From Escherichia coli (GTDB lineage Bacteria; Pseudomonadota; Gammaproteobacteria; Enterobacterales; Enterobacteriaceae), in the NCBI RefSeq assembly GCF_044324785.1, contig NZ_CP172127.1: DNA of 64,000 nucleotides. One strand, given 5' to 3'. The position numbers and the translations under genes were made by a program. Numbering within the stretch: the first letter of the stretch is position 1; every line of letters starts with the position of its first letter. Positions 58,371 to 59,057 of this stretch are shown one piece after another. The notes beneath the pieces were generated by a model, which was not told the DNA's origin, did not search any database, and saw only the letters and a program-made list of their open reading frames with translations.

Positions 58371-59057
58371 ATGAAAAAAATTGATATGCGAATACTGGTC
58401 CTGTTTATACTGGCCGTAATGCCTTTGTTGCCCTATCTTTATATTTTTCATGAAGGTTTTTCCCATAAGTCTGATGATTGGGGTAATTTTGGTTCTTTTA
58501 TGGGAGGAGCCGTTGCTCCTTTCCTTTCGGTACTGAGTATAGTATTGGTTTTGAGAACAATTGAATTAACTCAAAAGAACCATGCCGAGCAACTATCACA
58601 AGTAACAAAAGAGCATAACTACAATAAATTCAATGATCTGTGCGATTTCCTTGAAAAATCTATATTAAAGAGTTGGTTGGTTAATGATAAAGAAAGACGA
58701 CAACAGGTTATCCAGTCTTTAACAATAACAACTATTGGTGATGTCGTTTTTCGTTCTAATGAAAATGCGACACCTGAAGAACAACGTCGGTATGCAGAAG
58801 AAAATGCACAAAGAGTATTGTCATTCATGTCAGATGATATCAGAGAAATAATAGTTTGCCTCGATTATTTTTGTGACTTTATCCTGGATGATAAAAATCA
58901 TGATACTGAATTCATGAAAAATATCGCAGAAATAAGGCTGGATAATCATGTTCGATTCATTATATCTCTATATGTTTACCTAAATAATAAAAATTTAAAT
59001 CTATTATTAAATAAAAAATGGAAGAGCTTTAGACCATCTATAGACGAGTTGGTATAA
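58371..59057 (+). CDS. Small membrane protein (two predicted N-terminal TM helices plus ~165-aa cytoplasmic helical domain), fourth gene of the second hsd operon
   Basis: 228-aa ORF starting 21 bp after hsdS on the same strand, very AT-rich; hydrophobic segments ~res 7-24 and 40-62; followed by a hairpin terminator. Confidence 0.6.
   Translation: MKKIDMRILVLFILAVMPLLPYLYIFHEGFSHKSDDWGNFGSFMGGAVAPFLSVLSIVLVLRTIELTQKNHAEQLSQVTKEHNYNKFNDLCDFLEKSILKSWLVNDKERRQQVIQSLTITTIGDVVFRSNENATPEEQRRYAEENAQRVLSFMSDDIREIIVCLDYFCDFILDDKNHDTEFMKNIAEIRLDNHVRFIISLYVYLNNKNLNLLLNKKWKSFRPSIDELV

Follow-up and report, generated by a model that had tools for sequence, protein, structure and literature searches.

Does a gene that directly follows hsdS, on the same strand as a type I restriction-modification (R-M) operon, belong to that operon, or does it fill a place beside it that other genes can fill as well? 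The question is raised by ORF228, an open reading frame (ORF) with an ATG start at positions 58371..59057 (+ strand) of a 64,000-nucleotide (nt) stretch of Escherichia coli DNA (contig NZ_CP172127.1, assembly GCF_044324785.1), the whole of which is called the window below. ORF228 is predicted to encode an inner-membrane-anchored protein of 228 amino acids (aa). A first-pass annotation had read it as probably the fourth gene of the hsdR-M-S operon and had likened it to PrrC: the protein would be restrained by the type I enzyme and freed when a phage inhibits restriction, whereupon it would damage the membrane. PrrC is an anticodon nuclease that is embedded in the EcoprrI hsd locus, carries ABC-ATPase-like and nuclease domains, and is coupled to the R-M enzyme. 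The analysis described here leads to a different answer. The adjacency to hsdS reflects a cargo slot of a defense island and not a new R-M-coupled module. ORF228 itself, judged from sequence comparison, structural modeling, and analogy, is probably, though far from certainly, a stand-alone member of the AbiC/AbiP-like (putAbiC) superfamily, anchored in the inner membrane, that excludes phages and travels as mobile single-gene cargo.

The distribution of the gene carries the first part of this answer. The hsdR-hsdM lineage of the window (95-99% nucleotide identity) was present in 479 of 5426 complete E. coli genomes, and only 14 of those 479 carried ORF228, sensitive blastn included; ~97% were without the gene. 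The full-length relatives were then divided into an island clade of 72-92% identity and those outside it. All eight of the outside relatives with a readable gene context (8/8) were found directly after an integrase gene or an integrase fragment, six of them at the end of P2/186-like prophages, and none (0/8) was near an R-M system. For instance, in five P2/186-like prophages (from Klebsiella pneumoniae, K. oxytoca, Rahnella, Yersinia, and a compost metagenome), the ORF228 relative is the last gene, in the order CI repressor, integrase, ORF228 relative; its start overlaps the integrase stop in four of the five, and the compost-metagenome copy lies ~90 nt downstream. A Serratia full-length relative is preceded by an integrase fragment, the overlapping upstream gene of the nearest outgroup (P0030, 36% identity) is a tyrosine recombinase, and a viral contig from IMG/VR shows a repressor, an integrase, and then a full-length relative. 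In the wider family, the gene is the last one of the lysogeny operon (repressor, integrase, gene), at the end of P2/186-like prophages that is proximal to the attachment site (att).

More distant relatives share only the N-terminal membrane module (N-module) with ORF228. One of these, ORF1 in the Z-region of P2-EC45, bears the annotation "putative lysogenic conversion protein." A locus scan with the tighter family alignment recovered mostly N-module-only relatives; HsdR, HsdM, and HsdS were undetected within ~5 kb of all eight N-module loci (Pseudomonas, Oceanospirillales, Bacteroidota, and Chishuiella), several of which adjoin phage-type genes. The integrase-attachment (int-att) site and the Z-region of P2-like phages are described as defense hotspots in the relevant passages of Rousset et al. 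2022 (PMC9122126) and of bioRxiv 10.64898/2026.02.27.708500, and the int-att position is given in the latter's passage on it as a minor hotspot holding 3% of P2 systems. AbiC is absent from the checked passages of PMC9122126 and bioRxiv 10.64898/2026.02.27.708500, and the transmembrane (TM) mentions in those passages concern other families. ORF228 resembles P2-like hotspot cargo in that its full-length relatives are found at int-att and an N-module relative is found in a Z-region, but the window copy lies in a chromosomal integrative island after hsdS and not in a prophage. Taken as a whole, the family is distributed independently of R-M systems.

Every copy in the island clade, which spans E. 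coli, three lineages of Salmonella, and Klebsiella grimontii, is preceded by an hsdS of this hsdRMS lineage that is read in the same direction. This constancy is one of three points in favor of the PrrC-like model, the others being the position of the window copy, on the same strand and 21 nt past hsdS with no terminator in between, and the co-inheritance of its N-terminal third with the hsdS 3′ end. ORF228 is also like PrrC in being an extra gene linked to a type I hsd locus, where it might act as a second line of defense. However, the model is very unlikely in the light of the evidence on the other side. The great majority of E. coli genomes with this hsdRMS lineage hold other cargo in the slot, the full-length relatives outside the clade are linked to integrases and not to R-M systems, and, unlike PrrC, ORF228 has neither an ABC-ATPase nor a nuclease domain that Pfam, NCBIfam, or PADLOC models could find and lies outside the operon in a variable slot. 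The expectation that homologues would recur next to hsdS was thus borne out only inside the island clade, and a restriction-coupled backup of the PrrC kind is not what the relatives suggest.

The junction between hsdS and ORF228 also differs among the islands. In the window, it consists of 21 nt (58350..58370, + strand; type A) that are AT-rich and unstructured (folding free energy [dG], −1.9 kcal/mol; z, 0.2), with a weak and distant AGGA, and a consensus scan of the + strand of these 21 nt found no sigma-70-like promoter and no terminator-like site. The Salmonella Havana junction is identical in sequence. In four of the six island locus types, on the other hand, among them that of E. coli 1500 (NZ_CP040269), hsdS and ORF228 are separated by a 61-nt gap with a terminator-like hairpin of 12 to 14 bp (dG, −19 to −22 kcal/mol; z, −3.9 to −5.3), which was flagged by the terminator scan, and downstream of the hairpin the ORF has its own ribosome-binding (Shine-Dalgarno) site, GAAAGAG. 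This means that the lack of a terminator noticed in the first-pass annotation holds for the window and Salmonella Havana junctions and fails for the other four locus types, all of which is difficult to reconcile with a fourth gene of the hsdR-M-S operon. Cotranscription of ORF228 with hsdS is plausible in this window, given its junction sequence, and the hsdRMS operon is a possible source of read-through into ORF228, one that the family does not need. Because of the carriage by only 14 of 479 genomes, the integrase-linked relatives, and the junction-specific absence of a terminator, the adjacency to hsdS is to be seen as linkage by descent within one island and not as a functional rule.

Further comparison of the alleles showed that the window copy of ORF228 is a mosaic. 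Over its N-terminal third, it agrees with the Salmonella Havana allele at 97% and with the E. coli allele at 71% (comparison with loci L001 and L010); over its C-terminal third, the identity is 99% to the E. coli allele and 87% to that of Havana. The 3′ end of hsdS and the junction were co-inherited with the N-terminal third. Therefore, recombination remodeled the end of hsdS, the junction, and the start of the ORF as one piece, and the shuffling of hsdS target-recognition domains seems, from these sequences, to extend into the neighboring ORF228.

What follows hsdS in other strains makes the nature of the site clearer. In E. coli W, the cargo consists of two hypothetical proteins of 582 and 88 aa, followed by the same 5′-nucleotidase gene as in the window; in Eco_24-2013, it is a 1093-aa DEAD/DEAH helicase; and in SCU-152, it is a thymidylate synthase, a hypothetical protein, and a MazG-like protein. 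Since different cargo is found after hsdS among strains, the interval from hsdS to the 5′-nucleotidase gene (58350-63038 in the window; 11752-14094, 11766-15053, and 11746-14011 in the loci L038, L039, and L040, respectively) is a variable cargo slot, and the alternative genes that other strains have there may be unrecognized defense genes. The right border of the slot is the conserved 5′-nucleotidase gene (PF06189 type; 63039..64000, + strand), annotated as such in collinear loci, which is open for 320 codons to the window end and is cut there. A functional link between this gene and ORF228 was considered and is not favored; the gene belongs to the backbone of the island, and E. coli W has it but lacks ORF228. 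In 14 complete E. coli genomes, the gene order of the window recurs beside an integrase and tRNA-Leu, and the region is an integrative defense island. In this island, ORF228 fills the slot beside an independently inserted Dsr1 cassette.

The dsr1 gene (59098..62889, − strand) encodes an anti-phage sirtuin of 1263 aa (NCBIfam NF041818, 1670 bits against a cutoff of 1400; also detected by PADLOC as Dsr1) and converges on ORF228. Between the two lies an intrinsic-terminator hairpin (59062..59094) with a 15-bp stem followed by a T-run, common to ORF228 (+) and dsr1 (−). Its dG is −21.8 kcal/mol (z, −4.4), none of 200 shuffled sequences folded as well, and it is conserved in the E. coli L001 locus; the strong hairpin reported earlier past the ORF228 stop is thus real. 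This arrangement would allow the membrane protein to be a sensor or second effector of the sirtuin, the two convergent genes working together as partners. The genes are adjacent, share a terminator in the window, in all 14 E. coli genomes, and in Salmonella Havana, and are both AT-rich. Nevertheless, a partnership is scarcely credible and is largely refuted by the islands of K. grimontii and two Salmonella lineages (L004-L009), where dsr1 is missing and ORF228 is directly followed by the 5′-nucleotidase gene. The leader of that gene (~110 nt, conserved) aligns across the dsr1 insertion and the flanks are collinear, from which it appears that dsr1 is a clean cassette, inserted between the ORF228 stop and the 5′-nucleotidase leader and bringing its own hairpin. 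In addition, Dsr1 is cataloged as a single-gene system (NF041818 is an NCBIfam equivalog), and the prophage relatives of ORF228 have no sirtuin neighbor. The idea had been prompted by the first E. coli matches, which covered the ORF 3′ end and dsr1 together; those genomes carry the same island, and the islands without Dsr1 keep the ORF.

If ORF228 is neither an R-M subunit gene nor a partner of Dsr1, what kind of protein does it specify? The basic description in the first-pass annotation was reproduced: a 228-aa ORF on the + strand, 21 nt past hsdS, with two N-terminal hydrophobic helices and a soluble helical part. All six alleles compared (E. coli, Salmonella, and Klebsiella) are intact at 227 to 228 aa, and the pairwise ratio of nonsynonymous to synonymous substitution rates (dN/dS) among them is 0.12 to 0.20 at dS of 0.23 to 1.26. 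Because of these six intact alleles and low ratios, ORF228 is a real gene under purifying selection. Its GC content (32.6%) is lower than that of hsdM (50.7%), as had been stated, and of hsdR (51.2%), but hsdS (37.0%) and dsr1 (35.5%) are AT-rich too.

The predicted protein begins with a membrane hairpin. TM helix 1 (58389..58454, +; residues 7-28) reaches a Kyte-Doolittle peak of 2.54 over a 19-residue window and is helical in the AlphaFold2 model, and TM helix 2 (58491..58559, +; residues 41-63) peaks at 2.29 and would run on as a long stalk helix to about residue 100 (DSSP helix 34-100 in the model). The short loop between them and the start of TM2 hold a signature, S-x5-D-W-G-x-F-G-S-[FY]-x-G-G (58461..58511, +; residues 31-47). 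The remainder (58560..59054, +; residues 64-228) is predicted to be a cytoplasmic, all-helical C-terminal domain. The mean predicted local distance difference test (pLDDT) score of the model is 86.9, and everything past the membrane segments is helical. The N-terminal tail, MKKIDMR, has a net charge of +2 and the loop between the TM helices has −1, which by the positive-inside rule gives a predicted N-in/C-in topology. The C-terminal domain is acidic (net charge, −5; isoelectric point [pI], 5.4), as it is in most family members, and is proposed to be a sensor or specificity domain.

Searches with the protein revealed a large group of relatives held together by the membrane hairpin. A phmmer search of 1.84 billion cluster representatives gave 732 matches to ORF228 at E ≤ 1e-3. 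These are mostly 200 to 280 aa long, and most share only residues 8-100 with ORF228; ~20 match over the full length. In the signature, W37 and G46 are invariant among 60 diverse sequences, in which S31, F40, and G41 reach at least 90% conservation. The same conservation was seen in the 44-sequence full-length family alignment, where R195 is at least 90% conserved as well. By these alignments, conservation across the whole superfamily is highest in the signature-bearing membrane hairpin. When the soluble domain alone was used in an iterative search, ~43 diverse representatives were found also to share the ORF228 C-terminal domain, and therefore a true full-length family exists.

Existing models do not reach this family. 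ORF228 has no Pfam-A match at E ≤ 10 (putAbiC, PF16872, and DUF4760 included), is unmatched in the NCBIfam and PADLOC model scans, and matches only PHROG families 8999 and 33781, via its N-terminal part, both with function-less annotation. The PADLOC models for AbiC (PDLC02343) and AbiP (PDLC02351) miss ORF228 and nine other family members at E ≤ 10. Since ten family members fail the profiles even at this threshold, ORF228 is not a member of AbiC, AbiP, or PF16872 as now modeled. UniProt labels the 86%-identical Salmonella orthologue A0A3V3U0X5 and one K. oxytoca relative "DUF4760 domain-containing protein"; this label was not reproduced, as no Pfam DUF4760 match was found in ORF228 or in any of the 60 relatives listed. 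A further observation concerns P0038, a distant family member, whose residues 27-99 (TM2/stalk) weakly match (E, 0.003) the PADLOC model PDLC03198, "Type I specificity subunit" (208 positions). This could be a chance match, or the model could contain misannotated proteins of the ORF228 kind.

A link to the AbiC/AbiP-type proteins emerges at a deeper level. The distant N-module relatives P0052 and P0070 match PADLOC AbiP (7e-10), PADLOC AbiC (2.8e-7), and Pfam putAbiC (4.9e-22), the last of these being the match at residues 188-265 of P0070. The putAbiC model covers a C-terminal stretch of only 80 positions and detects only 2 to 4 of the 60 ORF228 relatives. When the ORF228 family was aligned with the putAbiC-positive set over the full length by hhalign, the probability was 99.8% (E, 4.5e-28; 200 columns), in a register that places ORF228 residues 143-204 on the PF16872 region. 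Moreover, jackhmmer searches with the soluble domain of P0070 or P0052 alone recovered the ORF228 clade, in a database of only 179 sequences. In a Foldseek search of AFDB50 with the AlphaFold2 model, ~45 of the top 50 matches were named "Phage abortive infection protein"; the lowest E was 2e-5, the highest TM-score was 0.74 over 223 columns, and the first match was the 86%-identical Salmonella orthologue. From the profile comparisons and the predicted fold, we conclude that ORF228 is likely to be a divergent member of the AbiC/AbiP-like (putAbiC) superfamily. Thus, the earlier suggestion of an abortive-infection-like protein gains a superfamily-level link to membrane-anchored AbiC/AbiP-type proteins by profile and fold, and loses its coupling to restriction.

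Several observations weigh against reading ORF228 as a stand-alone protein of this kind. First, the full-length hhalign signal is dominated by the N-terminal membrane module, and the alignment of the C-terminal part alone is weak (probability, 16%; P = 0.0016; 62 columns), in the same register as the full-length one. Second, the "Phage abortive infection protein" labels in the AlphaFold database are automatic, Pfam-derived names and not tested functions. Third, ORF228 and nine relatives fall outside the current AbiC/AbiP models, and ORF228 falls outside PF16872. Fourth, a Foldseek search of the PDB with the ORF228 model gave a best E of ~1, with no solved structure alike; likewise, the search of viral structures in BFVD gave a best E of 0.39, with no meaningful likeness. 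Fifth, the acidic domain (pI, 5.4) is unlike the nucleic acid-binding domains of AbiP and PdpSau, and the analogy may not transfer there. Finally, functional coupling to R-M is possible within the 72-92% identity clade.

It might also be that ORF228 is not a defense protein at all and that its location in a defense island is incidental. It would then be an accessory membrane protein of mobile elements, serving envelope or lysogenic conversion or the maintenance of the prophage or island. The absence of any PADLOC, NCBIfam, or Pfam match and the two PHROG families without assigned function would fit such a protein, and the slot also holds genes that are not obviously defensive, e.g., the thymidylate synthase. 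We regard this as improbable because the fold and the profiles link ORF228 to AbiC/AbiP-type proteins, because a type I R-M system and Dsr1 lie on either side of it and collinear loci also have an endonuclease that binds phosphorothioate DNA, and because the int-att site and Z-region of P2-like phages are documented as defense hotspots.

A comparison with the characterized proteins shows how far the likeness goes. AbiC (Prf) of Lactococcus is a single gene whose product has two N-terminal TM helices and a helical extra-membrane domain, a layout that ORF228 repeats. However, ORF228 is shorter (228 aa compared to the 306 positions of the AbiC profile) and comes from Gram-negative hosts in a prophage or island setting, whereas AbiC is on a lactococcal plasmid. 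With AbiP and PdpSau, ORF228 has in common, by sequence and model alone, the membrane anchor, the single gene, and the cytoplasmic C-terminal domain, and PdpSau is encoded by a Staphylococcus aureus prophage just as the relatives of ORF228 are prophage borne. These two proteins differ from ORF228 in having one TM helix and a basic, nucleic acid-binding/OB-like domain; ORF228 has two TM helices and an acidic pI. The carriers of putAbiC (PF16872) share the N-terminal hairpin and motif with ORF228, but the 80-position Pfam model itself misses ORF228 at E ≤ 10. To our knowledge, the AbiC/AbiP group, although long known, has had neither its mechanism worked out nor the structure of any member solved.

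AbiC, with two TM helices, and AbiP, with one, can be superimposed on their extra-membrane domains and have been grouped as AbiC/P (PMC13064643). In AbiP, the TM anchor is essential, and the protein binds RNA and single-stranded DNA, prevents phage DNA replication as well as the switch from early to late transcription, and is toxic when the phage major tail protein is present (PMC13064643). PdpSau, an AbiP-like prophage protein, causes membrane depolarization and permeabilization in infected cells (PMC10127798). By analogy, a working model for ORF228 can be drawn. Low-level, constitutive expression would supply the protein in uninfected cells, with read-through from hsdS as the probable source, since the window junction has no terminator; its prophage relatives would be expressed from the lysogenic operon. 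The variable cytoplasmic domain would recognize a phage product, and this product would more likely be a protein than a nucleic acid because the domain is acidic. AbiP-like nucleic acid binding by ORF228 was judged unlikely, with the charge of the domain as the sole basis. The conserved glycine-rich membrane hairpin would then be the effector, perturbing the inner membrane and aborting the infection. In this way, ORF228 would add a layer of defense beside the type I R-M system and Dsr1 and would depend on neither.

The main rival to such an abortive-infection mechanism is superinfection exclusion, in which an inner membrane protein expressed by the lysogen blocks the entry of the phage genome without killing the cell, like other prophage membrane morons. 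Four of the observations made above are in line with it: the relatives are in repressor-integrase operons at prophage ends, a site of lysogen-expressed genes; the membrane hairpin is the most conserved part; lysogenic conversion is the annotated role of the N-module relative from the P2 Z-region; and an acidic cytoplasmic domain is unlikely to bind nucleic acid. On the other hand, the only characterized relatives in the superfamily, AbiC and AbiP, act once the phage DNA is inside the cell, as does the AbiP-like PdpSau, and a simple block of entry needs less than a cytoplasmic domain of ~165 aa held under purifying selection. We therefore consider exclusion at entry unlikely, and prefer to view ORF228 as a stand-alone AbiC/AbiP-like phage-exclusion protein.

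A bolder reading of the same hairpin can be put forward only tentatively, and we would sooner bet against it than for it. The S-x5-DWGxFGSYxGG hairpin may define a large, mostly unannotated superfamily of modular phage-exclusion proteins, each encoded by a single gene (>700 clusters at 50% identity), in which the hairpin is the effector, the cytoplasmic domains are interchangeable sensors, and AbiC/putAbiC is one branch. Under this reading, the mosaic ORF228 allele would be an example of module shuffling. In the hairpin-less junction of the window, the gene could have been captured into the hsd transcript, leading to a restriction-linked, layered defense.

The remaining genes of the region were annotated as follows. 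The iatD gene, at 99.2% identity, places the window in E. coli. The operon upstream of ORF228 comprises hsdR (52060-55476, +; PADLOC REase_I, 4.5e-274), hsdM (55540-57174, +; MTase_I, 5.3e-192), and hsdS (57171-58349, +; 392 aa; Specificity_I, 2.4e-160). HsdR is of the EcoAI/EcoEI type (type IB-like) with an extra N-terminal region of ~200 aa; its homologues show a weak DUF4145 match, and its residues 5-212 match the N terminus of the PADLOC candidate PDC-M16A (1.2e-40). Divergent from and upstream of hsdR (48954-51574, −) are genes for a WYL-domain regulator (50804-51574), a GTPase (49752-50765) with weak LeoBC/LeoA-like PADLOC matches, and a 261-aa protein (48954-49739) with an apparent signal peptide. 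E. coli W and strain 1500 share this set of genes, which may be another defense or regulatory module. A "first" type I R-M system occupies the window at ~35240-41200 (+), with ORFs of 518, 389, and 1038 aa that were assigned as M-S-R by size and order alone. In collinear loci, the 5′-nucleotidase gene, whose product might serve the island by, e.g., nucleotide depletion, is followed by a phosphorothioated-DNA-binding HNH endonuclease (SBD-HNH). In K. grimontii (L004, 12871-18422), the 5′-nucleotidase gene is closely followed by another hsdM-hsdS pair, different from the first, and then by genes for an AAA_15/AAA_21 ATPase and a 260-aa protein, which shows how densely defense genes are stacked in such islands.

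As to what the locus means, a gene directly after hsdS should not be taken as a member of the R-M operon by default. By analogy, ORF228 would work most like the single-gene, membrane-anchored systems of the AbiC/AbiP/PdpSau type, of which it appears to be a new, unannotated member. Three elements are modestly new here: an invariant membrane motif that joins >700 clusters with variable cytoplasmic domains, the recurrent int-att position of the full-length ORF228 family in prophages, and a cargo hotspot downstream of hsdS in a common E. coli island. This interval, from hsdS to the 5′-nucleotidase gene, is worth mining because other strains hold different uncharacterized genes there. If cloned ORF228 protects against phage, an enterobacterial branch with two TM helices would be added to the AbiC/AbiP group, and the conserved membrane motif would be the likely business end of several hundred uncharacterized prophage and island proteins that Pfam, NCBIfam, and PADLOC miss.

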